Shown piece by piece: positions 5,437-55,064 of a DNA stretch of 64,000 nt. The position numbers were made by a program, and so were the translations under genes. Within the stretch, counting starts at the first letter, position 1. Every line of letters starts with the position of its first letter. Under the pieces are notes generated by a model. That model was given only the letters and a program-made list of their open reading frames with translations. It had not been told where the DNA came from and did no database searches. Source of the stretch: Candidatus Wolfebacteria bacterium RIFOXYB1_FULL_54_12 (GTDB taxonomy: Bacteria > Patescibacteriota > Minisyncoccia > UBA6257 > UBA9933); the NCBI GenBank assembly GCA_001793895.1, contig MGIT01000001.1:106508-170507 (forward strand), written 5' to 3'.

Positions 5437-5543
5437 GAAAAGATAAAATTATCGATTAATACAAAGTGCGCTGCGAATATCGCATCCGCACGCATATACA
5501 GTGTACACCACGCCACGAATATCGCGCAAACGTCCGCACACGA

Positions 5544-6095
5544 TCAGCGGATATGTTTTATGGTCGATGAACGAAACCGCGGCGGCTTGCCATAAATGGC
5601 GATGCCGCGATGCGTAATGTGCGGCCCCTTCGGCCCGTTGCCCACATCATGCCAACGCTCCAGAAATTCGGCAAAGGTAAGGTAGCCGCGATTCATAAGC
5701 GAAGGATCTTCAAAAATAAACTGTTCGTCATCATACCCGATGACCACGACATAATGCCCGTCATCGTAATCGCCCTTATAGTTTTGATGCCGATGCCCGG
5801 ACCATGCCTGAATATCCACGATGACGGGTACGCTCTTATCGATGTAACCCTTGATATCCGCAATGTTCATAGCGCGCATGTCCACGGAAAATCCTTCCGC
5901 CTTGGCAAAATCCGCTATCGCTTCCGGGTCCGTTCCGTCATGCGTGGTGTGCAGGCGCTTGATGAGCTGATCTTCACGAAATTCAATGCCGTAATAATAC
6001 AAAACCGACTGCATGGCGGAATCGCCACAGGTATAATCGGTCCCCTGCCGCACCTCAGGGAAATCAAGCAACCGCGTGTTGGAATGATTGGTCAT
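5544..6095 (-). CDS. peptidase C39-like (papain-fold) domain protein
   Basis: 183 aa. The YTCGDSAMQSVLYYYG segment holds a candidate catalytic Cys, followed by conserved His and Asp further on. Confidence 0.5.
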   Translation of the reverse strand: MTNHSNTRLLDFPEVRQGTDYTCGDSAMQSVLYYYGIEFREDQLIKRLHTTHDGTDPEAIADFAKAEGFSVDMRAMNIADIKGYIDKSVPVIVDIQAWSGHRHQNYKGDYDDGHYVVVIGYDDEQFIFEDPSLMNRGYLTFAEFLERWHDVGNGPKGPHITHRGIAIYGKPPRFRSSTIKHIR

Positions 6096-8299: not shown

Positions 8300-10006
8300 T
8301 TAAGGGCAAATTTTGGGGGCAATATCCCGGGCAACGCCGGTAGTGCCAAGCAGCTCACCTACTTCGTTGTAAGTCGGCGTCTTGATCGTCTCTACCAAAA
8401 TAACATTACCTTTCGAGTCCGGCATGCCCTCTTCGATTCGTTTCTGCATGCGACCCTGCATAACGATCTTATCGTCAGCCATATATTTATCGGCGTACTC
8501 TTCGGGCCAGACATCGTGATCAGTCTTGCCAATGATATCCTCACGCCGTTTCCCTGCACGCGAAAGAAATGCTTCGTTGACCTCAAGATACTCGCCTGCC
8601 GCATTTTTCATCCACACCAAATCGGGAATGTTATCCAAACAAACGCGTTGCTGTAGCTGATACAGCTTCATCTTTTCCTCGGCGATAACCTGCTTGCTTA
8701 GATTCCACCCGGTACCGATGATCCCGATGTCGTTGCCCTTCGCGTCGCGCAACGGAGCAGCCGACCAGCGATACGGGATCGTTGTGCCGTCTTTTTTGAC
8801 AAGATGCGACCGAACCTCGGTATATCCTTTCACGTACGCATCATTGACCATGCCGATCACCAACGGTCGGTCGCGATCCGGAAGCAATTCAAATATCAAT
8901 TTATGGGAAAGTTCCTCCGCTGAATATCCGCTGGCGGTCTCTGCCATTCGATTCCACTTGACGATATTGCGCTCGGTATCCAATACATATACGACGTCAG
9001 GAATCGCATCCATAAGATTGCTTAGCTCGTTCAAGGATCTGCTAAGATTTTTTTCACTTTCCTGCAGATTGCGGTATGCCAATAGGCTCGTCAACCCGTC
9101 GGCCAATCGCCGGCTGATTTCCTGGAAAAGTTCCTGTTCGTCGGCCGTCCATACCCGTGGATGGGAGCACTGGTGCATGCCAAATATCCAAGGCTTGTCC
9201 AATTTTGGATGGACGGCGATAAGCATTTGAGATTGAACACCAAAGCGCCCTGTGGTAGATTTGTCTACCGGGTTTTCCGTACCGACGGTGTAGATCACCG
9301 GCTTCTGAGACGCCAAAACTTCACGCATGGCTTGGACCATGTCCGGACTATCCATCGGCACATCAATATTCAAGGCCTTGGCACCTGCATATTCCGGCTT
9401 GGTAACTTCCATGGGTATGCGATACGAGGGCGCTTCAGGATCGCACGGATAAAGAAGCCACGCTCGATCACAATCAAAAATAGAAAGTACCTTGCTGAGA
9501 ACATTGGTCAATATCTGCTCAGGATCAGTAGCCCCCTGCATTGATTGATTGATCTGATCCATGCTCTCAAAAAAGAGGCGCTTGGTCCGATCCTTTTCCT
9601 CTACATTTTTACGATCGGTAATATTGTCGAATGCGGCGGTAAAAAATCCCCGCTCGGCGCTATATACGGAAACGACGAACCACAGCTTGAACGGACTCAG
9701 ATAGATCTCTATTTTTTCCGGATTGCCGGTATCGGAGACCCGGGCATATGTTTCAAATAACTCGGGGTTGGTATTCCGTATATTAGGAACGAGCTCCGTA
9801 GCCCGCCTGCCGACAACCTGTTGTAGGCCGGTTAGCCATTCAAAAGAAGGGTTGACTTCAAGATACACAAAATCGACAGGCTTGCCCGCCTCGTCAAAAA
9901 TTATTTCACAATGGGCAAACCCGGAAAGCATGCTGTTAAACAACATTTGGTAATGTTCTATACCATGCTTCTTCATGTGATTTTTTACCTTCTCCGAGTA
10001 TTCCAT
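8300..10006 (-). CDS. PAS-GAF-PAS-PAS sensor protein with no recognizable output domain
   Basis: 568 aa. PAS-like segments include DAIPDVVYVLDTERNIVKWNRMAETASGYSAEEL and NIPDLVWMKNAAGEYLEVNEAFLSRAG. A GAF-like core lies between them. No HisKA, HATPase or GGDEF/EAL domain is present. Confidence 0.6.
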   Translation of the reverse strand: MEYSEKVKNHMKKHGIEHYQMLFNSMLSGFAHCEIIFDEAGKPVDFVYLEVNPSFEWLTGLQQVVGRRATELVPNIRNTNPELFETYARVSDTGNPEKIEIYLSPFKLWFVVSVYSAERGFFTAAFDNITDRKNVEEKDRTKRLFFESMDQINQSMQGATDPEQILTNVLSKVLSIFDCDRAWLLYPCDPEAPSYRIPMEVTKPEYAGAKALNIDVPMDSPDMVQAMREVLASQKPVIYTVGTENPVDKSTTGRFGVQSQMLIAVHPKLDKPWIFGMHQCSHPRVWTADEQELFQEISRRLADGLTSLLAYRNLQESEKNLSRSLNELSNLMDAIPDVVYVLDTERNIVKWNRMAETASGYSAEELSHKLIFELLPDRDRPLVIGMVNDAYVKGYTEVRSHLVKKDGTTIPYRWSAAPLRDAKGNDIGIIGTGWNLSKQVIAEEKMKLYQLQQRVCLDNIPDLVWMKNAAGEYLEVNEAFLSRAGKRREDIIGKTDHDVWPEEYADKYMADDKIVMQGRMQKRIEEGMPDSKGNVILVETIKTPTYNEVGELLGTTGVARDIAPKICP

Positions 10007-10065
10007 GATACATTCAGTATACTAAAGCAAATACCATGGGGCAAGGTCCCTGTGTGGCGGAAGCG

Positions 10066-10677
10066 TCAGAACCCCCGGTCAAATGTTGTCATTTGCTCAT
10101 TGAATGTGTCATTCAATTCATTGACCATGATCGATTCATCGTTGATCTTTTTTACCAACGCAGATACATCCGCACCAACCGCTTCCGGATCGCCGGTGAT
10201 CTTGCCTTTGATGATTACCAGCAGCTGGTTCAGATAGTCGTTATAGGTAAGCAAATGCCCTATGAGGGTGACTTCCGTACTGACCGCGCCCAAGGCCGTT
10301 TCTGCCGAAGTCTTTGGTTCAATAGAAGAAACACCGAGTGTCATGGTCTGCAGATGTCCGGACAATGCGATGGCCTTATCGCGGATCTGTCGATTGCGTT
10401 CAAGTTCCTGCTTTACCAATTCGAGCGCTTCGGCGTATTTTTTATCATTGTTCAATGCGGAAATATCGCCGATATGCTTCGCGGAATCTTTGGACATGCC
10501 AACAATGTCATGCGCAATAAGCGAAGCCTCCTGTCGCGCCTGCATGAAATCATCGGGAACCGTCTTTGTTTGGGCAAGCAAAAAGCGCCCCACAAAATAG
10601 GCAAAAAATACCATGATCAAAAGGATCACAAACAAACGGATCTTTCGGGGAACTCTAAAATACAATTCACTCATCAT
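10066..10677 (-). CDS. hypothetical protein with an N-terminal membrane anchor
   Basis: 203 aa with an N-terminal TM (LFVILLIMVFFAYFVGRFLL) and a helical soluble domain. The overlapping plus ORF 10036..10680 is less protein-like. Confidence 0.4.
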   Translation of the reverse strand: MMSELYFRVPRKIRLFVILLIMVFFAYFVGRFLLAQTKTVPDDFMQARQEASLIAHDIVGMSKDSAKHIGDISALNNDKKYAEALELVKQELERNRQIRDKAIALSGHLQTMTLGVSSIEPKTSAETALGAVSTEVTLIGHLLTYNDYLNQLLVIIKGKITGDPEAVGADVSALVKKINDESIMVNELNDTFNEQMTTFDRGF

Positions 10678-15470: not shown

Positions 15471-15533
15471 TGTCATTCCCGCGGAGGCGGGAATCTATTT
15501 AATACTGGATTCCCGCCTCCGCAGGGATGATAC
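15471..15533. repeat. TGTCATTCC nested-palindrome element: composite of two A-modules with a 13 bp spacer; the right end is degenerate
   Basis: tgtcattcccgcggaggcgggaatc tatttaatactgg attcccgcctccgcagggatga. Confidence 0.8.
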
Positions 15534-15563
15534 CGTCTCTAATTAATACATTACTCAGCGCAT

Positions 15564-15654
15564 TGTCATTCCGGCCTAAGCCTGTCCGCCAACTGGAGGA
15601 AGCCGGAATCTTGTTGAAAGAACTCGAGATCCCGTGTCGAGGCACGGGATGACA
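15564..15654. repeat. TGTCATTCC nested-palindrome element: composite with an 18 bp spacer ending cgag
   Basis: tgtcattccggcctaagcctgtccgccaactggaggaagccggaatc ttgttgaaagaactcgag atcccgtgtcgaggcacgggatgaca. Confidence 0.8.
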
Positions 15655-15749
15655 TCGGAGAGCGACACAGGAAGCAATCGGAATGAATTTATTAGGGATG
15701 GCATGGCAGCTACAAAAAATCGCCGAATATCATTCGACGATTTTTATCG

Positions 15750-16073
15750 TTAGGAAATTTTACCAATTTCTACTTCGGTATAATCCTGCCTATGCGTCTT
15801 GAACTTTCGATAGCGGTTCTTGTTGTGGTAGCGGAAGACGATCTTTTTGTCGTCCCGATCCTTGCTCAACACGGTCGCTTCGACTTTCGCATTGGCCACA
15901 TACGGAGCTCCGATGGTCGCATCGGCGCCATCTTTCTGCTCGTCGGCGACAAGCAAAACCTTATCAAAAACGAACTGCTCGCCAATGGCGGCCTCCAGTT
16001 TTTCTACTCTTAGCTTTTGTCCGGCGGAAACCTTGTACTGCTTTCCACCCGTTTCGATGACTGCAAATTTCAT
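15750..16073 (-). CDS. rplU: 50S ribosomal protein L21
   Basis: MKFAVIETGGKQYKVSAGQKLRVEKL. Confidence 0.9.
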   Translation of the reverse strand: MKFAVIETGGKQYKVSAGQKLRVEKLEAAIGEQFVFDKVLLVADEQKDGADATIGAPYVANAKVEATVLSKDRDDKKIVFRYHNKNRYRKFKTHRQDYTEVEIGKIS

Positions 16074-16117
16074 ATCACTTAAAGATACCTGAAGACCCTT
16101 AAAATGTCAACAGAATT

Positions 16118-16189
16118 GTCATTCCCGCGAAGGCGGGAATCCACTACGTTCATATAGATCCCTCCGCCAGTCGGCGGACGGGAATGACA
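16118..16189. repeat. TGTCATTCC nested-palindrome element (composite)
   Basis: tgtcattcccgcgaaggcgggaatc cactacgttcatatagatc cctccgccagtcggcggacgggaatgaca. Confidence 0.8.
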
Positions 16190-16321
16190 GAAATAACCTG
16201 CACCCTATCCGAAAAATTGGAAAAATGCCGTCCACGCCAAGTACTTCCGCAAGCTTCGGGACACCCTCCGTTGATGTTCAATGATTTTATTTCTACCAAG
16301 GTCAAATCGGAAACAGCCTAT

Positions 16322-16897
16322 TCATAAGATGAATTTTAAGATGCTGTCACGCACGATCGGAAGTTCATAAATGCCGGCAGCTTCGCTAAAATGCCCCATG
16401 TCATGCATAACCGTAACGAAACCGCCCAAACGATCCTCAAATAACCGCTTGTTTTCATCAAGTGCAACATATGGGTCATTGTCGGAAAGGATAACGCACA
16501 ACGGACGGCATCGCTCACGCACAAAGGCAAGATTAATCGCGGTATCCAACCACGGCCTTGCGATATCCTCCTCTTCGGCGTTTTCCAGACCTTGCAACGA
16601 AAACCAGCCGGCAACAAAAATGACCGGCACAGATACGCCGTCCCCGTACAATTCCAAATAGCGCAAAATAGTCTGACACCCGATACTATGGCCAACTAAA
16701 ATATCCGTAGACCGTAACTCACCGATCTCCGTATGGAGCGCGCCGACCCACTCATCGATTGTTGGACGCATCGTATCGGGCATCGCAGGAATATGCACCG
16801 CAAGGCCATACGGCTCAAGCTGGTCCGCGAGCCATGGAAACCATTCTCGATCCGGAGCTGCGCTCCACCCATGTACGATAAATATGCGCTGTTTCAT
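16322..16897 (-). CDS. alpha/beta hydrolase (YdeN/RBBP9-like serine hydrolase)
   Basis: MKQRIFIVHGW, nucleophile elbow GHSIGC, and a downstream Asp/His. Confidence 0.55.
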   Translation of the reverse strand: MKQRIFIVHGWSAAPDREWFPWLADQLEPYGLAVHIPAMPDTMRPTIDEWVGALHTEIGELRSTDILVGHSIGCQTILRYLELYGDGVSVPVIFVAGWFSLQGLENAEEEDIARPWLDTAINLAFVRERCRPLCVILSDNDPYVALDENKRLFEDRLGGFVTVMHDMGHFSEAAGIYELPIVRDSILKFIL

Positions 16898-16899
16898 GA

Positions 16900-17235
16900 T
16901 TAGAAATATAAATAATACACCACCGATCCGATGGCCAATAATGCAATGCATACCAAAACAGATAGGGCAATGATCACGCGTTCCTTTTTTGCATCTTCAG
17001 GCTTCAATTGCGCCTCTTGGGCAATGTCATTGAACACCTCATCGGCCTTTTTAAGAACATCCTCGCCGGAAACCTGGGCAGGTTTCGCATCGCCCGTCGC
17101 AAGCACCGCCTGCATGATAGCATCCACATCGGCCGGCTCGACGCCCCGATACACGAGCAGTTCACGAACCTGGTCCTGTCCGATGCCCCCCTTCAGCTGG
17201 TCTTTTGCGATTGTGATGAGTTTTTGTTTATCCAT
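16900..17235 (-). CDS. hypothetical protein with a C-terminal TM anchor; it shares an N-terminal domain of about 45 aa with the next gene
   Basis: MDKQKLITIAKDQLKGGIGQDQVRELLVYRG aligns with MIQQALIEVVKNQLGGGVSEAEVREFLRRRG from 17374..19170. Confidence 0.5.
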   Translation of the reverse strand: MDKQKLITIAKDQLKGGIGQDQVRELLVYRGVEPADVDAIMQAVLATGDAKPAQVSGEDVLKKADEVFNDIAQEAQLKPEDAKKERVIIALSVLVCIALLAIGSVVYYLYF

Positions 17236-17286
17236 GGCTAAAATCTATTTTTCTATCGTTTTATTATTATGCAAACTTCGCTTATT

Positions 17287-17356
17287 TGTCATTCCGGCCT
17301 CCGAGCCGGAATCTTACCGTTTAACCGCGAGATCCTGAATCAAGTTCAGGATGACA
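17287..17356. repeat. TGTCATTCC nested-palindrome element (composite, 18 bp spacer)
   Basis: tgtcattccggcctccgagccggaatc ttaccgtttaaccgcgag atcctgaatcaagttcaggatgaca. Confidence 0.85.
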
Positions 17357-29026: not shown

Positions 29027-29088
29027 TGTCATTCCCGCGGAGGCGGGAATCTATTTAATACTGGATTCCCGCCTCCGCGGGAATGACA
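29027..29088. repeat. TGTCATTCC nested-palindrome element: canonical perfect composite
   Basis: tgtcattcccgcggaggcgggaatc tatttaatactgg attcccgcctccgcgggaatgaca. The terminal inverted repeats are perfect. Confidence 0.9.
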
Positions 29089-29106
29089 ACCTTTCTGATT
29101 CACTTA

Positions 29107-30843
29107 TTACAAATCCCCCTTCTCGCTCTTGTGTGGTTGCTTTGGTCGTTCTTCGGGGGTAGCTTCTTTTCTTTTTTGTAATGATTCTTCGATTGCCTTT
29201 TTCAGGTCATCAATATTGACCGCCTTTTTCTCGAACACATGTTTTGGCCTATCCTGCGGCATACTGCGAAGTCTATCGTCCATCGCTGGGCGATGCGGCA
29301 CAGGGCTGGCGCCACGATCTCCGCTAAATGGCCGCACGCTCGTCGGCCTATCGGTCAACGGCCCGTCCTGGGATGCCCGCGCAAACGACGGTCTGTCCTG
29401 CCTGCCCGCCGTAGTGTTAGCGGAGGAGGAATCCGCCGGCTGGCGGACGAAGGGTTTACGCTCGAAAGAAGGCTTCGGCGCTTGCGCACGAGGGGTTAGA
29501 GTCGAGCTCAACGACCGCTCGTCACGGCGCATAACCTTATCTGCCATGGATGTCTTACCCGACCCCATATATTCCTTGGCGATCATTTCATCCACCAACG
29601 CCTTAGGCATGGAATAATTTCTGCGGGAGTTTTCAATAATGACATCCTCGTAATTCGGCTGCGGGATTGGATACGGCGGCAAGGTCTCTGCCGAAAATGG
29701 TCTCGATGCCTGGCCGTCAACCAACAATTTAAGGTAAATATGCCGGTTTGACAAGCCGATCATATCTTGCGGCGTAAACTCGGGTTCGAATTCCTTTTCA
29801 AAAAATACGGCGTCGATGGCGCCAACGCGAAACATAGCCAAGGTGCCAATGTTGCCGACGATTGCCTCTGCAAGCCCTTCTTCTTTTTTAAGCTGATCGA
29901 CATACTGGTGGGCCAGCGTCAAGCCAAGTCCGTATTTGCGCGCCTCGGCGAAGATCTTCGTAAATGAACCGGTAGAAAAGTTTTGAAACTCGTCGATGTA
30001 CAAAAAGAACGGCCTGCGTTCGCTCTCGGGAATATCGATGCGGCTCATGGCGGCAAGCTGGATTTTGGTAATGATCATGGCGCCGAGCAATGCGGAATTG
30101 TCTTCGCCGAGACGGCCCTGCGAAAGATTGCAGATCAATATCTTGCCTTCATCCATTGCCTTGCGCATGTCGATGGTCGACTTCGGCTGGCCGATGATGT
30201 TACGGATGACCGGATTGGAACTGAACTGCCCTACCTTGTTCTGCAACGGTGCAATGGCCTCGGTCATGAACTTGTCGGTATATTTTGCAAATTCGTTTTC
30301 CCAGAACGACTTAATGACCGGGTCCTTTAAATTGGAAACGACCTTCAGGCGGTACTCTTTCTCCGCAAGCATGCGCATAATACTCAGTAAGGTCGTTCCC
30401 GGATATTCCAAAAGCGCCAACAGGGTATTGTTCAAAATATATTCCATGCGCGCAGACCATGCGTCCACCCAGATTTTTTGAAACACACCCATCACCGCCG
30501 ACGCGACAAGGTGCGCATGTTCGTCACCGACGCGTTCAAGCGGATTAAATCCGACCGGATTTTCGATATCGGCCGGATTGACATAAATGACATCCTTGAT
30601 GCGGTCTTCTGGCACATGCTTAAGCAACTCTTCGACGAATTCGCCATGCGGGTCGAGCACGGCAACACCAAATCCGTTCTTGATGTCGTTGATCATCAAG
30701 TTTTTCATCATGGTGGTCTTACCCGTGCCGCTCTTCCCGACGATGTACATATGCCGCAGGCGGTCGTTCATTTTGATGCCAAAATTAACGCTTTGATTGC
30801 GAAAATTCGTCTTTGCAAAAATTGAAATTTCTTTGTTGCTCAT
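29107..30843 (-). CDS. TraG/TraD/VirD4-family (type IV secretion coupling-protein-like) P-loop ATPase with a low-complexity C-terminal tail
   Basis: Walker A (IVGKSGTGKTT), Walker B-like (FLYIDEFQNF), and a C-terminal Pro/Ser/Arg-rich tail of about 150 aa. The alternative start at 30858 (MTNSPM) lies inside the repeat TIR. Confidence 0.6.
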   Translation of the reverse strand: MSNKEISIFAKTNFRNQSVNFGIKMNDRLRHMYIVGKSGTGKTTMMKNLMINDIKNGFGVAVLDPHGEFVEELLKHVPEDRIKDVIYVNPADIENPVGFNPLERVGDEHAHLVASAVMGVFQKIWVDAWSARMEYILNNTLLALLEYPGTTLLSIMRMLAEKEYRLKVVSNLKDPVIKSFWENEFAKYTDKFMTEAIAPLQNKVGQFSSNPVIRNIIGQPKSTIDMRKAMDEGKILICNLSQGRLGEDNSALLGAMIITKIQLAAMSRIDIPESERRPFFLYIDEFQNFSTGSFTKIFAEARKYGLGLTLAHQYVDQLKKEEGLAEAIVGNIGTLAMFRVGAIDAVFFEKEFEPEFTPQDMIGLSNRHIYLKLLVDGQASRPFSAETLPPYPIPQPNYEDVIIENSRRNYSMPKALVDEMIAKEYMGSGKTSMADKVMRRDERSLSSTLTPRAQAPKPSFERKPFVRQPADSSSANTTAGRQDRPSFARASQDGPLTDRPTSVRPFSGDRGASPVPHRPAMDDRLRSMPQDRPKHVFEKKAVNIDDLKKAIEESLQKRKEATPEERPKQPHKSEKGDL

Positions 30844-30852
30844 AGGGCTATT

Positions 30853-30990
30853 TGTCATTCCGAATTTATTTCGGAATCTCGTGGTAAAATGCCAAGATCC
30901 TGTATCCGTCAGCCGACGAACGGAAGGATCTGTTTTGCATTGTCATACCGGCGGGTGAGGGCCTGTCCTCGACCTGATCGGGGACCTGTC
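30853..30990. repeat. TGTCATTCC-family elements, degenerate cluster
   Basis: tgtcattccgaatttatttcggaatc ... atcctgtatccgtcagccgacgaacggaaggatc ... tgtcataccggcgggtgagggcc... Confidence 0.6.
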
Positions 30991-45326: not shown

Positions 45327-45412
45327 TGTCATTCCGAGCCTGCTGTCATCCTGAACTCGTTTCAGGATCTCGCGTACAAACAGTGAGCTTCTGAAATAAA
45401 TTCAGAATGACA
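45327..45412. repeat. TGTCATTCC nested-palindrome element: composite with an extra truncated left end
   Basis: tgtcattccgagcc tgctgtcatcctgaactcgtttcaggatc tcgcgtacaaacagtgag cttctgaaataaattcagaatgaca. Confidence 0.8.
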
Positions 45413-45425
45413 CTTTAAAAAATAT

Positions 45426-45458
45426 TGTCATTCCCGTCCGCCCACCAGCAGAGGAATC
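45426..45458. repeat. TGTCATTCC-family half element (left module, degenerate)
   Basis: tgtcattcccgtccgcccaccagcagaggaatc. Confidence 0.6.
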
Positions 45459-45471
45459 CAGTACCCCGCAT

Positions 45472-45496
45472 TGTCATTCCCGCGAAAGCGGGAATC
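45472..45496. repeat. TGTCATTCC-family solo A-module
   Basis: tgtcattcccgcgaaagcgggaatc. Confidence 0.8.
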
Positions 45497-47796: not shown

Positions 47797-47824
47797 TGTC
47801 ATTCCGGCGGAGGCCGGAATGACA
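47797..47824. repeat. TGTCATTCC-family minimal single-module element
   Basis: tgtcattccggcggaggccggaatgaca. Confidence 0.85.
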
Positions 47825-47836
47825 ACATAAGAAGTT

Positions 47837-47904
47837 TGTCATCCTGAACTCGTTTCAGGATCTCATGGTAGTGCGATGAGATTCCGGCCTCCGCCGGAAT
47901 GACA
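47837..47904. repeat. TGTCATTCC nested-palindrome element (composite, 18 bp spacer)
   Basis: tgtcatcctgaactcgtttcaggatc tcatggtagtgcgatgag attccggcctccgccggaatgaca. Confidence 0.85.
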
Positions 47905-47937
47905 AATGCGCGGTTCTATTAATAGAACCGCGCATTC
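47904..47937. promoter_or_regulatory. perfect 34 bp palindrome abutting the repeat element
   Basis: aatgcgcggttctattaatagaaccgcgcatt. Confidence 0.3.
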
Positions 47938-49490: not shown

Positions 49491-51494
49491 TTAAGTTATA
49501 TCCAAGTTGCGCACCAATGTTGCATTTGACTGGATGAACTGCTTGCGTGGCGCGACTTCGTCGCCCATCAATATCTCAAACAATCGATCGGCTTCCTGAG
49601 CGTCATCGATCTCAACCTGAAGCAACGTACGGAACTCCGGATTCATAGTCGTTTCCCAAAGCTGGTCGGGGTTCATTTCACCAAGACCCTTATAGCGCTG
49701 CACATTTACGTTCGACTCGCTCTTTTTACCGGCGGTCATTTCCGAAACGGCCTTGTCTTTTTGCTCGGGCGTGTACACATAGCGCACATCCTTACCAAGC
49801 TGGAGGCGGAACAATGGCGGCTGTGCAATGTACAAGAAACCTCCATCGATCACCGGGCGGAAGAAACGATAGAACAAGGTCAATAACAATGTTCGAATGT
49901 GCGCTCCATCAGTATCGGCGTCGGTCATGATGACAACTTTATGGTACCGCAACTTCTCGATATCAAAGCTATCGGAAATGGCAGTGCCGAGCGCAATGAC
50001 CAATGACTTGATTTCGTTATTGACAAGCATCTTGTCGAGCCGCGCGCGCTCGACGTTCAAGATCTTTCCCTTAAGCGGAAGAATGGCCTGGAACCGGCGA
50101 TCACGACCCTGCTTGGCCGAGCCTCCGGCAGAATCGCCTTCGACTATGTACAGCTCGGAATCAGCAGCTTTGCGACTGGAACAATCGGCAAGCTTCCCCG
50201 GCAGAGTCATACCCTCGAGCATGCCTTTGCGCAACACGGTATCCTTTGCGGCTTTTGCGGCCTTACGGGCCTTTTGGGCCAAGATACATTTTTCGATGAT
50301 CGCTTTGCCATCACCCGAATATTTTTCAAAGTATTCCTTTAGCGCTTCAGAGAGCACGGACTCCACTGCTCCGCGCGCTGCCGGCGTTCCTAAGCGGGCC
50401 TTGGTCTGCCCCTCGAATTGCGGATCGCGCAGCTTCACGGAGATGATCGCCGTAATACCCTCGCGCACATCATCGCCGGTCAAGTTATCTTCCGTTCCTT
50501 TTAATGCATTTATGTTGCGCGCGAATTCATTCAACGCGCGCGTCAGGGCCGTGCGAAAACCGGTCACATGCATACCGCCATCCGATGTATAGATATTGTT
50601 TGCAAAACTCAACTCACGAGCATCAGGGTCGTCGTTATAAATAAATGCCGCCTCAACATCAATACTCTCGTAACTTTTATGCGCATAGAAAGTCTCCTTG
50701 TGCACTGGGGTATGATTGCGATTTACATAACGGACGAACGAAATAAGTCCCCCTTCAAAATAGAAGGAGTAATAGAATGGAAGATCCTCTCGATCATCAA
50801 CGATCTCGATGCGGATCCCTTTGGTCAAAAACGCCTGTTGGCGCAAATGGCTTACGATTTCTTTGCGGTCGAATTCGAGCGTGGAGAAAATGGACCCGTC
50901 CGGCTTAAATAAGACCTTTGTTCCGTTGGCCGTGCACTTACCCGCTTTCTTTACATCGTATTGCGGTTTGCCGATCTTATATTCCTGCACATACATCGTG
51001 CCTTCTTTGCACACTTCGATCTTCATCCATGTCGAAAGTGCGTTTACGACCGAAAGGCCCACGCCGTGCAGACCGCCGGAAACCTTGTACGAATCGCCGT
51101 CAAACTTACCGCCGGCATGTAATGTAGTAGCCGCGGTTTCGAGTGCGGATTTTTTTGTCTTCGGGTGAATGTCTACGGGGATACCGCGCCCATCGTCGGC
51201 AACCGTAACCGTGCCGTCTTTCAACAGCTCTACCTTAATGCTCTTGGCATACCCAGCCATGGCTTCATCGAGCGAGTTGTCAAACACCTCCCAGATCAAA
51301 TGATGCAATCCCTGTTCGCCGGTCGAACCGATATACATACCGGGGCGCTTGCGCACCGGCTCCAATCCTTCGAGTACCTGAATATCCTTCGCGCTATACG
51401 AAGCATTCCCCCTGTTGTCGGTCGGTTCGTCCAACTTTTTGGCAGCCGCTTTCCGAGGCTTTTCTTCTTCTATGTTTTCTGCTTTTTTCGCCAT
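49491..51494 (-). CDS. gyrB: DNA gyrase subunit B (short form of 667 aa)
   Basis: GHKL ATPase (LHHLIWEVFDNSLDEAMAGY), Toprim (EGDSAGGSAKQGRDRRFQAILPLKGKILNVE), and a C-terminal QFIQSNA. Confidence 0.85.
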   Translation of the reverse strand: MAKKAENIEEEKPRKAAAKKLDEPTDNRGNASYSAKDIQVLEGLEPVRKRPGMYIGSTGEQGLHHLIWEVFDNSLDEAMAGYAKSIKVELLKDGTVTVADDGRGIPVDIHPKTKKSALETAATTLHAGGKFDGDSYKVSGGLHGVGLSVVNALSTWMKIEVCKEGTMYVQEYKIGKPQYDVKKAGKCTANGTKVLFKPDGSIFSTLEFDRKEIVSHLRQQAFLTKGIRIEIVDDREDLPFYYSFYFEGGLISFVRYVNRNHTPVHKETFYAHKSYESIDVEAAFIYNDDPDARELSFANNIYTSDGGMHVTGFRTALTRALNEFARNINALKGTEDNLTGDDVREGITAIISVKLRDPQFEGQTKARLGTPAARGAVESVLSEALKEYFEKYSGDGKAIIEKCILAQKARKAAKAAKDTVLRKGMLEGMTLPGKLADCSSRKAADSELYIVEGDSAGGSAKQGRDRRFQAILPLKGKILNVERARLDKMLVNNEIKSLVIALGTAISDSFDIEKLRYHKVVIMTDADTDGAHIRTLLLTLFYRFFRPVIDGGFLYIAQPPLFRLQLGKDVRYVYTPEQKDKAVSEMTAGKKSESNVNVQRYKGLGEMNPDQLWETTMNPEFRTLLQVEIDDAQEADRLFEILMGDEVAPRKQFIQSNATLVRNLDIT

Positions 51495-51538
51495 GTCTTA
51501 GAAAATAAAAGGCCATTGTCTGGCGCTTATGTAAATTC

Positions 51539-51563
51539 TGTCATTCCCGCGGAGGCGGGAATC
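51539..51563. repeat. TGTCATTCC-family solo A-module upstream of gyrB
   Basis: tgtcattcccgcggaggcgggaatc. Confidence 0.8.
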
Positions 51564-51656
51564 CATTACCATTATGATAGCAAAAACGAGCCAAAAAAGC
51601 CAGCGGCCAGAGGAGTAAAGCCCCTTCAAAACAACCGGGACGCTACAACAAAAAAA

Positions 51657-51692
51657 GCCCGATGGCACACCCTATAAAGGTGCCCACCGGGC
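51657..51692 (-). terminator. candidate rho-independent terminator
   Basis: An imperfect hairpin, gcccgatggcacc...ggtgcccaccgggc, with a T7 run on the minus strand. Confidence 0.35.
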
Positions 51693-51714
51693 TTTGCCCT
51701 AAAAAGAAAGGGGG

Positions 51715-52329
51715 CTATTCCAATGCCAACGGGATGCAGGAAGGGACGTCTATTTCACAACCCTCCCGATCCAAACAGATCGTGGTCCAATTGACCTCCG
51801 GCGAATATGATTTTCCAATGATCAAGCAACCCGTCGCCAGCACATTGCCCTCAGTCAGCTCATTCGGAAACTTGGACCGTTTATTACTTCGCAGGGCAAT
51901 CGGAAGTCGAGGAGCCAACTCCACCCAGCCGGTTTTATCAAGACGGATAAGAACCGAGCTATTAAACCCCCTGCGCGGAGCTTCAACGACGATCTCACCA
52001 CTACCTGTTAAAATATCTCCCGGCATAAGCGCCCGCGGCTGGGAAATTGTCGGCGTGCGCAACATGCTTGAACCGTTGCTCTTTTGCCTCTCGTAATATT
52101 CGCGAAGATCGTATGAACGCTCGTGGATCTCGTCGGGCCAACCGGGAGTTTCCAGCTCGGCCAGTCTTCCCGCTCTCATAAGGATCATTGTATTGCTTTT
52201 GCTATCAGCAAAAACGATCCCGACATGATCGCAGGCCTTGTTAGTCCGGATGACGCAATGCTTTCCTTTGTGCTCGCCCGAAATAATACGAAATACCTTA
52301 CTGTCCGGCCTAATGATAGACATGCCCAC
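51715..52329 (-). CDS. hypothetical protein
   Basis: 204 aa with no confident motif. Confidence 0.35.
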   Translation of the reverse strand: MGMSIIRPDSKVFRIISGEHKGKHCVIRTNKACDHVGIVFADSKSNTMILMRAGRLAELETPGWPDEIHERSYDLREYYERQKSNGSSMLRTPTISQPRALMPGDILTGSGEIVVEAPRRGFNSSVLIRLDKTGWVELAPRLPIALRSNKRSKFPNELTEGNVLATGCLIIGKSYSPEVNWTTICLDREGCEIDVPSCIPLALE

Positions 52330-52426
52330 ACCCTCCTCTTTCTATGGATATATATGTAAAATAAGAGCTAACTCAAACTAACACCTGCGTTGCGCACTGT
52401 CAAACGATATTTAAAAAAATATTTTG

Positions 52427-52497
52427 AGCGGGTAAAGGGAATCGAACCCTCGCTTCAACCTTGGGAAGGTTGCGCACTACCACTATGCAATACCCGC
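52427..52497 (-). tRNA. tRNA-Gly (CCC)
   Basis: Reverse complement reads GCGGGTATTGCATAGTGGTAGTGCGCAACCTTCCCAAGGTTGAAGCGAGGGTTCGATTCCCTTTACCCGCT. The anticodon loop is ttCCCaa. Confidence 0.75.
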
Positions 52498-52880
52498 AAA
52501 AACGATACAGGCATTATAAAGAACAACCGGACAAAAGTGAAGTCATGGAAATAAAAAAACGACCTCTATGGTCGACGCGAATAAAGAAAACAAACCCGGT
52601 TGATGGCGATCGAACGAACCCAGTATTCCACGCAAGAAGAATGTAAGAATTCCCATATGAAATTGTCTGCCCATGCGCACAATAAAATACTGTATTTAGT
52701 ATAGGGCAACCAAATAAGATATACAACACCCGCACACCTTTTCTGTAACCCCGGCGGAGCTCGCCACGTGGAAAGTAGAAACTTTCTTTACGTGGGCCGG
52801 AGGAGTCCAGCGTTTTCCGCGATAGCGGTAGCTGGACATTCAGACCCTAACAATGCCGGGAATGACGATGCGAGATTGGG

Positions 52881-52987
52881 TGTCATCCCCGTCCGTCCGC
52901 CAGCCGGCGGACGGAGGGATCCATGGTTTTTGCAGTAGTAGGGCTGGGATACCCAGACTCTGGATTCCCGTTTTCACGGGAATGACA
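52881..52987. repeat. TGTCATTCC nested-palindrome element (composite, long spacer)
   Basis: tgtcatccccgtccgtccgccagccggcggacggagggatc ... gactctgg attcccgttttcacgggaatgaca. Confidence 0.75.
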
Positions 52988-53054
52988 ATACCGAGGTGAC
53001 AAAGCAAGAAAATACTCATACAAAAAGGTTGTGACCCCGGCGGAGCTCGCCACG

Positions 53055-53084
53055 TGGTCCGCCAATGGCGGATCGGAATGACAC
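53055..53084. repeat. TGTCATTCC-family right-end fragment
   Basis: tccgccaatggcggatcggaatgaca. Confidence 0.5.
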
Positions 53085-53151
53085 CATCCACGCATTGTCA
53101 TGTCGACGCCTACCCGCCTTGGTCGGGAAGGCCGGTATCCGGTGTCTTGCA

Positions 53152-53289
53152 TTGTCATTCCGAGAGTAGCGGAGCGGAGCCAAGGAATCTGTTTTTAGTA
53201 CGGATCCCTGCTCCACCTCCGCCAGCTGGCGGATATGGCGGCACGCGGTCGATTTAATTCCGCTTCGCTATATTGCACTCGGGATGACA
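53152..53289. repeat. TGTCATTCC-family element, degenerate long composite
   Basis: tgtcattccgagagtagcggagcggagccaaggaatc ... ctccgccagctggcggatatggcgg ... cgggatgaca. Confidence 0.55.
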
Positions 53290-53476
53290 GAAAGAACTGC
53301 TATCGAATTAGTAAACAATTTGCCGTGTTTATTACCACCGCTTGAATTCGTTTGGTATGCGCGTTAGCTAAGCAATAATTGACTACAGCCAATAAGTGTT
53401 CTATACTTGTTCTATATTAGAATAAATACATTGAATACTGCTCACGTTTTATTGTTCTATCTACGTTCTAACATAT

Positions 53477-53938
53477 ATGTCCATAACAAAAACACAAAAA
53501 CAAATATTGGATATCTTTGAAAAAAATGGCGGGGCACTTCCTTCGTTTCGCGAAATAGCCCGTCAGATTGGAGTGTCGTCGACAAACACTGTCTCCTATC
53601 ATATAGAGCGCCTGCGAAAGAATGGCTACCTCGATATCGGACACTCCCCCCAAGGGATGGCAAACCTGTCACTTAAAACGATTCTTGCCTTGGATGCGAA
53701 GCCGGGAGTCTACGTGGTTCTCTGCGCGAACAAACCATTTTATATTGGGTCGTCCACGAACATCCGAAAGGACATTCTTGAAACGGTCATTGGCATAGAC
53801 CGGTCCCCGTTTCCACAGATCGTCGGCAAGCCGGAAGAACTGTCCATTGCCTACCACATCATCGAAAGCGAACCCGAACGGGCCGACCTCAAACAATACC
53901 TGCTCGAATTTTACCAAGCCAAGGGCATCGACATATGA
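53477..53938 (+). CDS. LexA-like winged-HTH DNA-binding domain fused to a GIY-YIG nuclease domain
   Basis: The N-terminus LTKTQKQILDIFEKNGGALPSFREIARQIGVSSTNTVSYHIERLRKNGYL resembles the LexA N-domain. The C-terminus carries GVYVVLCANKPFYIGSSTNIRKDI (GIY-YIG). Confidence 0.55.
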   Translation: MSITKTQKQILDIFEKNGGALPSFREIARQIGVSSTNTVSYHIERLRKNGYLDIGHSPQGMANLSLKTILALDAKPGVYVVLCANKPFYIGSSTNIRKDILETVIGIDRSPFPQIVGKPEELSIAYHIIESEPERADLKQYLLEFYQAKGIDI

Positions 53939-53980
53939 ACAATAAAACGGTCCGCCAACATGGCGGACCGTTTTATTGTT
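53939..53980 (+). terminator. rho-independent terminator (bidirectional palindrome)
   Basis: aacaataaaacggtccgcc-aacat-ggcggaccgttttattgtt, followed by ttttatt. Confidence 0.7.
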
Positions 53981-53984
53981 TTTA

Positions 53985-55064
53985 TTAATACAGGAACTTG
54001 CTCAAGAAATACAGAATCAGACCAAGCCCGGAGAAAATCGATGACAACAACCAGAAGCGCATCGTGATCTGGCTCTCGCTCCACCCCAACGCTTCGAAGT
54101 GATGGTGGATCGGAGCGGCGAGAAACACTTTTTTCCCGTGACGCAACTTTTTTGAGGTCAGCTGTATGATGACCGACAACGATTCGATAACGAGCACAAT
54201 GCCGATGATCGGAAGCAGTACGACCGAGTTGGTCAGGAACGCGATCACGGCAAGCACCGCCGTAAGCCCAAGGATGCCCGTCTCGCCCATATAAAACTTT
54301 GCGGGCGGTACATTGTACCACAGGTAGGTCAACATCGCCCCGACAATGATCACGATCAAGGTAACCAGGTCATACAATCCGCGCGAATATGCAATGACGC
54401 CAAAGGATATGAAGATGGGGGTCAACACGCCCGCCGACAATCCATCAAGTCCATCCACGACGCCGCTCGAAAACGTGGCGAGCATCGTCAACACGAACAG
54501 CACCATGTACAATCCGTCGATCTCGATATTGCCATGAAACGGAATGTAAATGCTGCTCCAGCCGAGCTTGAAATGAAACCACCACGCGCCCACGAATGCG
54601 ATCAGACAAACGATGGCCAATCGCCACTTAAAACGAAGGCCTCCGCTGATATAGTTTCCGCTGTTGCGTACCGTCATAATATCGTCGACCAACCCAAGTA
54701 GCGAGGCGGCGATCAACGTGAACAACGGAAGCCATGTCTGCGAACGGCTTAGAAAATTGACTTGTTCGGAAAGCGGGTATGGAAGCACCTGCACCAAAAT
54801 AAGATCGAGTATGGCGATCGCCAATACGGTTCCCCATATCAAAATGCCACCCATGCGCGGCGTGGTAACTTCTTTCTTTGCATGAAACTTCTGAAATATC
54901 GGCGTGGCATAACCGCCGATGGATAATTCCTTTGGCTTCTTTTTCCACGCCTTGTATTTATAAAGAAAATGGATCAGTACCGGGGCAAACAAAATGGCGA
55001 CAAGAAATGATGCCATAAAAAAACTGAGGAACTTTACGATAAGGAATGCGTGTGTCAGATACAT
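53985..55064 (-). CDS. mraY: phospho-N-acetylmuramoyl-pentapeptide transferase
   Basis: LVDDI, VVDGLDGLSAG, and PIHHHFEALGW. Confidence 0.85.
   Translation of the reverse strand: MYLTHAFLIVKFLSFFMASFLVAILFAPVLIHFLYKYKAWKKKPKELSIGGYATPIFQKFHAKKEVTTPRMGGILIWGTVLAIAILDLILVQVLPYPLSEQVNFLSRSQTWLPLFTLIAASLLGLVDDIMTVRNSGNYISGGLRFKWRLAIVCLIAFVGAWWFHFKLGWSSIYIPFHGNIEIDGLYMVLFVLTMLATFSSGVVDGLDGLSAGVLTPIFISFGVIAYSRGLYDLVTLIVIIVGAMLTYLWYNVPPAKFYMGETGILGLTAVLAVIAFLTNSVVLLPIIGIVLVIESLSVIIQLTSKKLRHGKKVFLAAPIHHHFEALGWSESQITMRFWLLSSIFSGLGLILYFLSKFLY

Follow-up and report, generated by a model that had tools for sequence, protein, structure and literature searches.

What does a small protein do that carries the DNA-binding head of LexA and, in place of the tail expected behind it, the fold of a DNA-repair nuclease? 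In LexA, the textbook repressor of this type, the head that binds DNA is linked to a tail that cleaves itself. We addressed this question for the gene at positions 53477..53938 (+ strand) of a 64,000-nucleotide stretch of Candidatus Wolfebacteria bacterium RIFOXYB1_FULL_54_12 (contig MGIT01000001.1, positions 106,508 to 170,507 of the forward strand; this whole stretch is called the window below). In this gene, a LexA head and a LexA-type direct-repeat box are joined to a different tail, a disarmed DNA-repair nuclease fold. From its sequence and that of its promoter, the product is likely to be an autoregulated DNA-binding repressor derived from LexA, and not a nuclease. Together with its relatives it forms an undescribed family, narrowly distributed in Patescibacteria, of putative LexA-derived autorepressors with a pseudo-nuclease domain.

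Domain architecture and extent of the family

The list of open reading frames (ORFs) confirmed a coding sequence of 153 amino acids (aa) plus stop at exactly the coordinates given in an initial annotation of this DNA, and both peptides quoted there are contained in the product, a two-domain protein.

53477..53938, + strand: two-domain coding sequence (ORF list; 17 full-length homologues; more from metagenomes)
53483..53638, + strand: LexA-type winged helix-turn-helix (wHTH), residues 3-54 (Pfam PF01726, structure matches)
53666..53935, + strand: UvrC/Cho-like GIY-YIG fold, residues ~64-153, with the catalytic Arg, Glu, His/Tyr, and Asn lost; read as a pseudo-nuclease domain

The N-terminal domain matched LexA_DNA_bind (PF01726) at residues 3-54 with 40.3 bits (cut-off, 23.7 bits), which bears out the LexA-type wHTH recognized earlier. 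The same Pfam domain was matched by 18 of 18 members of the family alignment (alignment A1), and the structures matched by the N-terminal domain were those of LexA DNA-binding domains (1leb, 3jso, and 1jhf). The recognition helix of the window protein is SSTNTVSYH. The lexA equivalog model of NCBIfam (TIGR00498) reached 34 bits against a cut-off of 110.95 and aligned with residues 3-55 only. Pfam gave no match to Peptidase_S24 in the window protein, and no Ala-Gly cleavage region is present in it; the initial annotation was thus right in noting that the S24 domain is missing, and the C terminus folds as a GIY-YIG domain instead.

Whereas the LexA domain passed its Pfam threshold, the GIY-YIG domain did not. 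Pfam GIY-YIG (PF01541) scored 17.6 bits, below the gathering threshold of 22.6 bits, over profile positions 2-25 of 78, and gave any match at an E value of ≤1 in only 6 of 18 members. TIGR01453 scored 20.8 bits (cut-off, 56.05) over residues 75-98 only. The fold itself, which had also been named in the initial annotation, was borne out by modeling, by structure comparison, and by a profile of the C-terminal domain (C domain). An AlphaFold2 model built from an 18-sequence alignment had a mean predicted local distance difference test score (pLDDT) of 88, with block means mostly ~90 beyond about residue 70. The modeled C domain consists of a strand (77-83), a strand (86-93), a helix (96-105), a helix (113-117), a strand (122-128), and a helix (132-148), and it contains the beta-beta-alpha-beta-alpha core of the GIY-YIG fold. 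The best Foldseek matches were UvrC domains (probability, 1.00; target-normalized template modeling [TM] score, 0.64), and a profile made from the C domain only matched the UvrC N-terminal domain from end to end (E = 0.002). Comparison by hhalign with an alignment of canonical GIY-YIG domains gave 99.5%, a value that is not fully independent because some of the canonical domains had been collected with that same C-domain profile. The architecture of the protein is a LexA-type wHTH followed by a UvrC-like GIY-YIG fold, without an S24 domain.

A word-indexed search of 5.8 billion proteins returned 17 full-length relatives of 151 to 160 aa, and those that are named come from Candidatus Wolfebacteria and other Patescibacteria. 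When 1.84 billion representatives were searched exhaustively by HMMER with the C-domain profile, 18 proteins were found at an E value of ≤0.001; among the 16 that were retrieved, 5 had both domains, 2 were short fragments, and most of the remaining ones were canonical GIY-YIG carriers, one UvrC-like protein among them. Scans of genome and metagenome contigs added ~12 distinct members with 37 to 48% identity. The DNA-binding domain alone yielded one candidate, and no significant one, in the 5.8-billion-protein index, and the viral library BFVD gave separate matches to GIY-YIG endonucleases and to proteins with a LexA DNA-binding domain but no convincing full-length match. The distribution of the LexA/GIY-YIG fusion, which the initial annotation had marked for checking, is that of a small family, narrowly spread within Patescibacteria. 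Its existing database names are automatic only (“LexA repressor,” “HTH domain-containing protein,” and “biotin operon repressor”), and the family is undescribed in the literature searched, which did not include the paper on the SOS network of Patescibacteria (Sanchez-Osuna et al. 2017).

Loss of the active site in a maintained domain

The defining features of the GIY-YIG superfamily are its two name-giving motifs, a central Arg, and a C-terminal Glu (Dunin-Horkawicz et al. 2006, PMC1564403). To place these residues, the register of the C domain was set by HMMER against UvrC, by MAFFT with canonical domains, and by hhalign; the three independent alignments agreed, and PGVY, xIG, N-[IL]-x-x-[R], and E-R-x-x-L-[E] served as anchors. 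Residues were then counted in 31 family members with 25 to 93% identity.

UvrC Y19 (Tyr of GIY): Y79 in the window protein; among the members, Y in 26, F in 4, C in 1
UvrC Y29 (Tyr of YIG): Y89 in the window protein; Y in 12, the rest F, H, L, T, or R
UvrC G31 (Gly of YIG): G91 in the window protein; G in 24
UvrC R39 / I-TevI R27 (catalytic Arg): D100 in the window protein; H in 13, D in 11, S in 5, Y in 1, F in 1, Arg in 0
UvrC Y43 (conserved Tyr/His; His in most canonical domains compared): T104 in the window protein; not conserved in the family
UvrC E76 / I-TevI E75 (metal-binding Glu): K139 in the window protein; K in 23, E in 3, A in 2, R in 1, H in 1, L in 1
UvrC N88 (conserved Asn): absent from the window protein and from the family

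The window protein retains both motif tyrosines (GVY and YIG). In comparison with an orthologue of 91% identity, the ratio of nonsynonymous to synonymous substitution rates (dN/dS) was 0.10 to 0.11 for the C domain and 0.046 for the N-terminal domain, at a dS of about 0.55, so that the comparison is unsaturated. The low ratio indicates that the C domain is maintained. When a fold is conserved under purifying selection while its catalytic residues are replaced throughout, it bears the marks of a pseudo-enzyme domain, which here would have taken on a new, noncatalytic role; as a nuclease, the C domain can almost certainly be dismissed. The initial annotation had proposed a sequence-directed nuclease or nickase. 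That the protein is sequence directed very probably holds, but the nuclease or nickase half of the proposal is lost with the catalytic Arg (0/31) and the Glu (3/31).

Predicted operators in the promoter of the gene

In the 100 nucleotides (nt) upstream of the gene, GTTCTA occurs four times and forms two direct-repeat pairs in an 11-bp register.

53379..53407, + strand: sigma-70-like promoter TTGACT-17 nt-TATACT (consensus scan, 10/12 matches; a predicted, not a mapped, start site)
53398..53414, + strand: predicted operator O1, GTTCTA-TACTT-GTTCTA (GTTCTATACTTGTTCTA), over the −10 box (repeat scan, orthologue alignment)
53454..53470, + strand: predicted operator O2, GTTCTA-TCTAC-GTTCTA (GTTCTATCTACGTTCTA) (repeat scan, orthologue alignment)

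The −10 hexamer TATACT (53402-53407) lies inside O1, and the arrangement TTGACY-17-TATACT is shared by two related loci (L001/L009). The starts of O1 and O2 are 56 bp apart, and 6 nt separate the end of O2 from the ATG. Neither GTTCTA-N5-GTTCTA nor the less strict GTTC-N7-GTTC has an exact match in the 64-kb window other than O1 and O2. Wolfebacteria orthologues with 62 to 91% identity have kept the pairs, at the same distances to the start codon and with the 56-bp spacing between O1 and O2, and when the upstream regions of orthologues were aligned, the repeat pairs were the only invariant islands, the remainder being unalignable.

Operators were counted in 22 gene-bearing loci and the window (309 kb in total, some of it redundant), among which 17 loci are independent. 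GTTC-N7-GTTC was found 32 times in these 309 kb: 28 sites are on the coding strand, no more than 120 nt upstream of the gene, one lies at −146, and 3 are elsewhere. At least one full site is present in 13 of the 17 independent loci, down to a protein identity of 39%. In the clade with 39 to 47% identity, the operator is typically GTTC-TATAAT-T-GTTCTATG, with the −10 box inside it and the second repeat overlapping the ATG, an arrangement in which the mRNA would be leaderless. Repeats that have stayed with the gene across this range of divergence and that overlap its core promoter are a classic sign of an autorepressor. A search for a regulon with looser motifs, made in the window and the sampled loci, gave nothing above chance beyond the gene's own promoter.

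Direct repeats of the form GTTC-N7-GTTC have been reported as a type of LexA-binding motif in Alphaproteobacteria (PMC8565304). An Elusimicrobia contig (L011) carries a canonical S24 LexA (ORF 9956-10609) whose recognition helix, STNTVSYH, is identical to that of the family, and the promoter region of this lexA (9936-9971) has two TAGAAC hexamers 12 bp apart and one GTTCTA. As a single case, a lexA with the identical helix and the same hexamers is suggestive support for the match between helix and half-site.

Separately from the operators, a perfect 32-bp palindrome, AATGCGCGGTTCTATTAATAGAACCGCGCATT, was observed at 47905-47936, between a short-chain dehydrogenase gene and rplK. It includes the operator heptamer GTTCTAT in inverted arrangement and may be a terminator-like hairpin or an extra binding site that is differently arranged.

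Proposed mode of action

The computations show what the two domains are, that the active site is lost, that both domains are under purifying selection, and that the operators are conserved, and where these lie. For the behavior of the protein, we infer that it binds the operators, that it represses by binding, and that it oligomerizes through the C domain. Each LexA-type wHTH would bind one GTTC(TA) half-site, and the direct repeats, 11 bp apart, would present these half-sites on the same face of the helix. Because O1 covers the −10 hexamer and O2 comes shortly before the start codon, protein bound at O1/O2 would block RNA polymerase and so shut off its own synthesis. The C domain would stand in place of the self-cleaving and dimerization domain S24 and hold two or more DNA-binding heads together. 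Oligomerization is most likely what it provides; possibly, it also senses a signal or the DNA backbone. The Lys and Arg residues of the old active site (98, 99, 135, and 139) would suit contact with the phosphate backbone without cleavage, although this is speculation. Whatever releases the protein from its operators, RecA-stimulated self-cleavage cannot be the mechanism, since there is no S24 domain.

Several points weigh against an autorepressor of this kind. The binding of the protein to the repeats is derived from position and co-occurrence only, and the repeat partly overlaps promoter elements. A full site is missing in 3 of the 17 independent loci (L014, L029, and L031), and in another locus (L012) the repeat has a 12-bp register. 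In the DNA sampled, the only target found was the promoter of the gene itself. As GIY-YIG domains are mostly monomeric, dimerization through the C domain is a tentative assignment. Finally, the pair E134-R135 is nearly invariant, the basic residues 98, 99, and 139 are conserved, and the GIY Tyr is conserved in 26 of 31 members, a pattern that could reflect some residual chemistry or contact with DNA at the former active site.

Genomic context

The gene is single-copy at each locus and syntenic in Wolfebacteria. On Wolfebacteria-like contigs with 48 to 91% identity, the order is secE-nusG-rplK ... gyrB, a variable spacer, the gene, a GT4 (MraY-like) gene, an S11 carboxypeptidase gene, and scpB. 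In the window, the neighboring GT4/MraY-like gene (53985..55064, − strand; Glycos_transf_4) is convergent with the gene, and a hairpin lies between the two.

53937..53981, no strand: GC-rich hairpin with a 20-bp stem between the gene and the convergent GT4/MraY-like gene (terminator-like scan)

This hairpin is probably a bidirectional terminator, and with such a terminator the gene would be monocistronic. The gene is vertically inherited, single-copy, and chromosomal, and it is not mobile. Because synteny is conserved in Wolfebacteria, a homing-type mobile gene, one of the possibilities raised in the initial annotation, does not fit; the order gyrB ... gene ... GT4/MraY-like, penicillin-binding protein (PBP) argues otherwise. 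In the clade with 39 to 47% identity (L004/L005, L025, L028, L031, and L024), the gene is flanked by a divergently transcribed gene for a giant surface protein (1270 to nearly 3000 aa; N terminus AATYTF.Q..W.GG; fn3/RCC1 domains), and downstream of it are response-regulator-like, ABC ATPase, and FtsX permease genes.

Small stand-alone GIY-YIG genes are common in genomes of the candidate phyla radiation (CPR). In locus L012, an intact canonical GIY-YIG gene of 87 aa (5465-5728, + strand) is located 12 bp downstream of the family gene, and in L001, a 74-aa GIY-YIG remnant (5439-5663, − strand), which begins past the GIY-YIG strands, is located upstream of it. These adjoining genes may be a coincidence or a hint at the origin of the fusion. 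In the interval from gyrB to tRNA-Gly, the window has a 204-aa ORF (51715-52329, − strand) with no Pfam match, and relatives hold other unannotated ORFs there.

Searches with PHROGs and PADLOC yielded only generic matches at the level of the helix-turn-helix (HTH), and the readings of the protein as a phage repressor or as part of a defense system were rejected on this basis. A regular-expression search of the six-frame translation of the window turned up no Walker-A motif of RecA, no GDSM motif of S24, and no canonical GIY-YIG motif; with these negatives, the window is uninformative on a canonical SOS system.

Hairpin repeats beside the gene

The palindromic debris that the initial annotation had described upstream of the gene, next to tRNA-Gly, is present. 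The spacer between tRNA-Gly and the gene (52498-53476, ~980 nt) holds several hairpin elements ended by TGTCATTCC/GGAATGACA and contains no convincing ORF and no Rfam match; with Rfam, 51400-54100 gave tRNA-Gly alone and no known RNA within the stretch rich in repeats. Two copies of a 28-nt sequence, TGTRACCCCGGCGGAGCTCGCCACGTGG, stand in direct orientation in this noncoding spacer (52744-52771 and 53030-53057; 96% identical, 286 bp apart). The spacer looks long for what is probably a small, compact genome, and relatives, too, have a long spacer at this place, with different content.

Across the window, the 9-mer TGTCATTCC occurs 52 times with at most one mismatch (16 expected), in many intergenic spacers. 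Clusters of the hairpin repeat were observed at 1451-2456, 15471-17295, 29027-30949, 45327-45480, 47797-47904, and 52859-53289. Its conserved ends are TGTCATTCC ... GGAATGACA / GGAATC, and an example of a perfect hairpin is TGTCATTCCGGCGGAGGCCGGAATGACA at 47797-47824. The repeats are found also in L001, L008, L009, and L014 and are absent from most other loci; no copy of TGTCATTCC was found in 13 of the 17 independent gene-bearing loci (up to 20 kb each). They look like a family of elements of this lineage resembling repetitive extragenic palindromes (REP) or miniature inverted-repeat transposable elements (MITE). Co-variation of gene and repeats, another check suggested at the outset, was rejected on the count of loci without repeats; the two do not co-vary, and their adjacency is incidental. 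The proposal that the enzyme acts on the palindromic elements fails in the same way, the repeats being spread over the whole window and missing from most loci that have the gene.

Alternative explanations

The protein could be an SOS-type master regulator that has replaced LexA, that controls repair genes via GTTC-N7-GTTC boxes, and whose dead UvrC-like domain senses lesions or single-stranded DNA directly. Such a regulator would account for the combination of a LexA-type DNA-binding domain with a LexA-type direct-repeat box and for a C domain that is specifically UvrC/Cho-like, with the helix preceding the PGVY strand. Autoregulation is typical of lexA, and the automatic NCBI name of one relative (P0008) is “LexA repressor.” However, neither the 64-kb window nor the ~300 kb of related loci had a GTTC-N7-GTTC site upstream of any other gene, the neighbors in the divergent clade (the giant surface protein and the response-regulator-like, ABC, and FtsX genes) are not repair genes, and no evidence of damage sensing was found. 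We regard this replacement of LexA as unlikely. It may be elaborated into a scenario in which a dead UvrC-type lesion-recognition module took the place of S24 in some Patescibacteria and in which the protein would be released from its box on damaged or single-stranded DNA, giving an SOS-like switch independent of RecA and of cleavage; we offer this scenario as a conjecture to which we attach a low likelihood.

The GTTC repeats could, alternatively, be part of the promoter architecture or the site of another factor, with the protein binding elsewhere or having a nontranscriptional role. The overlap of the repeats with the −10-like sequences TATACT and TATAAT would be explained in this way. However, the repeats are essentially confined to the region upstream of this gene and are not seen at the remaining promoters of these loci, they are kept with the −10 box either inside or beside them, their half-site matches known LexA half-sites, and the same hexamer is found in the promoter of a canonical lexA with an identical recognition helix. 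These four observations make a role of the repeats apart from the protein rather improbable.

An active sequence-directed nuclease or nickase would need a noncanonical active site, built from Y79, E134/R135, and K98/K99/K139. The GIY-YIG fold is present, the GIY Tyr and the E134-R135 pair are kept to the extent given above, and fusion endonucleases of a winged helix (wH) and a GIY-YIG domain, Ahi29725I and Apa233I, do exist (PMC11037411). However, the Arg and Glu that define the superfamily have gone from all and from nearly all members, respectively, the GIY Tyr is replaced by Phe in 4 members, the Gly and Tyr of YIG are eroded, the domain is below threshold in Pfam GIY-YIG, and there is no evident logic in a single-copy, syntenic gene whose product cuts its own promoter. 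We consider enzymatic activity of this kind very unlikely.

A mobile or defense element (a homing endonuclease, a wH-GIY-YIG type IV restriction enzyme, or a mobilizer of the TGTCATTCC repeats) is scarcely credible and is largely refuted, for although the domain order is that of the wH-GIY-YIG type IV enzymes, a repeat-rich noncoding stretch adjoins the gene, and small canonical GIY-YIG genes or remnants adjoin it in L012 and L001, there is one copy per locus with synteny kept across 48 to 91% identity, no intron, intein, or defense-island context was found (PADLOC, generic HTH only), the repeats are window-wide and missing in 13 of the 17 independent loci with the gene, and the active site is lost.

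The autoregulated, LexA-derived repressor thus stays the reading that we favor. If it is true, the family would be a clear added case of a pseudo-nuclease recruited into transcription control, and it would illustrate one way for regulators of the LexA family to acquire a different switch mechanism. To our knowledge, there are almost no regulators with known sites in Patescibacteria, and the protein with its operator (GTTCTA-N5-GTTCTA) would offer a defined pair for studies of regulation in these uncultivated bacteria with reduced genomes. The database names “LexA repressor” and “biotin operon repressor” would be corrected as well, and a reading of the protein from its domains would wrongly predict a nuclease.

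Comparison with known systems

With LexA (TIGR00498), the window protein shares the LexA-family wHTH, predicted operators in its own promoter, and a GTTC-N7-GTTC box of the Alphaproteobacteria type (PMC8565304). It differs from LexA in that the S24 Ser-Lys peptidase and dimerization domain and the Ala-Gly cleavage region are lacking and a GIY-YIG fold is present instead, and in that no SOS-type regulon was seen in the sampled DNA.

The N-terminal domain of UvrC/Cho (PDB 1ycz and 1yd6) is the best match in structure and profile; the match extends over the entire domain, the helix that leads into the PGVY strand included, and the PGVY...IG and ER..L motifs are common to both. In the family, however, other residues stand in place of R39, Y43, E76, and N88, position Y29 varies, and the UvrB-binding, EndoV-like, and HhH domains are absent, the GIY-YIG fold being fused to a wHTH.

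Among the architectures listed in the 2006 census of GIY-YIG proteins is a fusion with a LuxR-wHTH, but not one with LexA (PMC1564403). Unlike the I-TevI-like homing endonucleases, which reside in introns or inteins or as free-standing mobile genes and in which the DNA-binding domain is C-terminal and of the NUMOD type, the family has an N-terminal, LexA-type DNA-binding domain, and its synteny is conserved; the score with TIGR01453 given above likewise speaks against membership in this group. The stand-alone GIY-YIG proteins (PF01541) of CPR bacteria have the fold and the IGS(T)xNLxxR motif in common with the fused domain, but they keep the canonical Arg (NLKRRIEEH in L012 and NDLKRRGYKH in L001) and pass Pfam, whereas the fused domain fails Pfam and is more UvrC-like.

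The domain order is also that of Ahi29725I and Apa233I, type IV wH-GIY-YIG endonucleases dependent on N6-methyladenine (6mA), in which the wH domain is the 6mA sensor, a role first described for DpnI (PMC11037411). These enzymes and the window protein are small single chains with an N-terminal winged helix and a C-terminal GIY-YIG domain. The type IV enzymes cut DNA, whereas in the family described here the wH is of the LexA type and the GIY-YIG domain has lost its active site, and the gene, which is syntenic, has the predicted operators in its own promoter.

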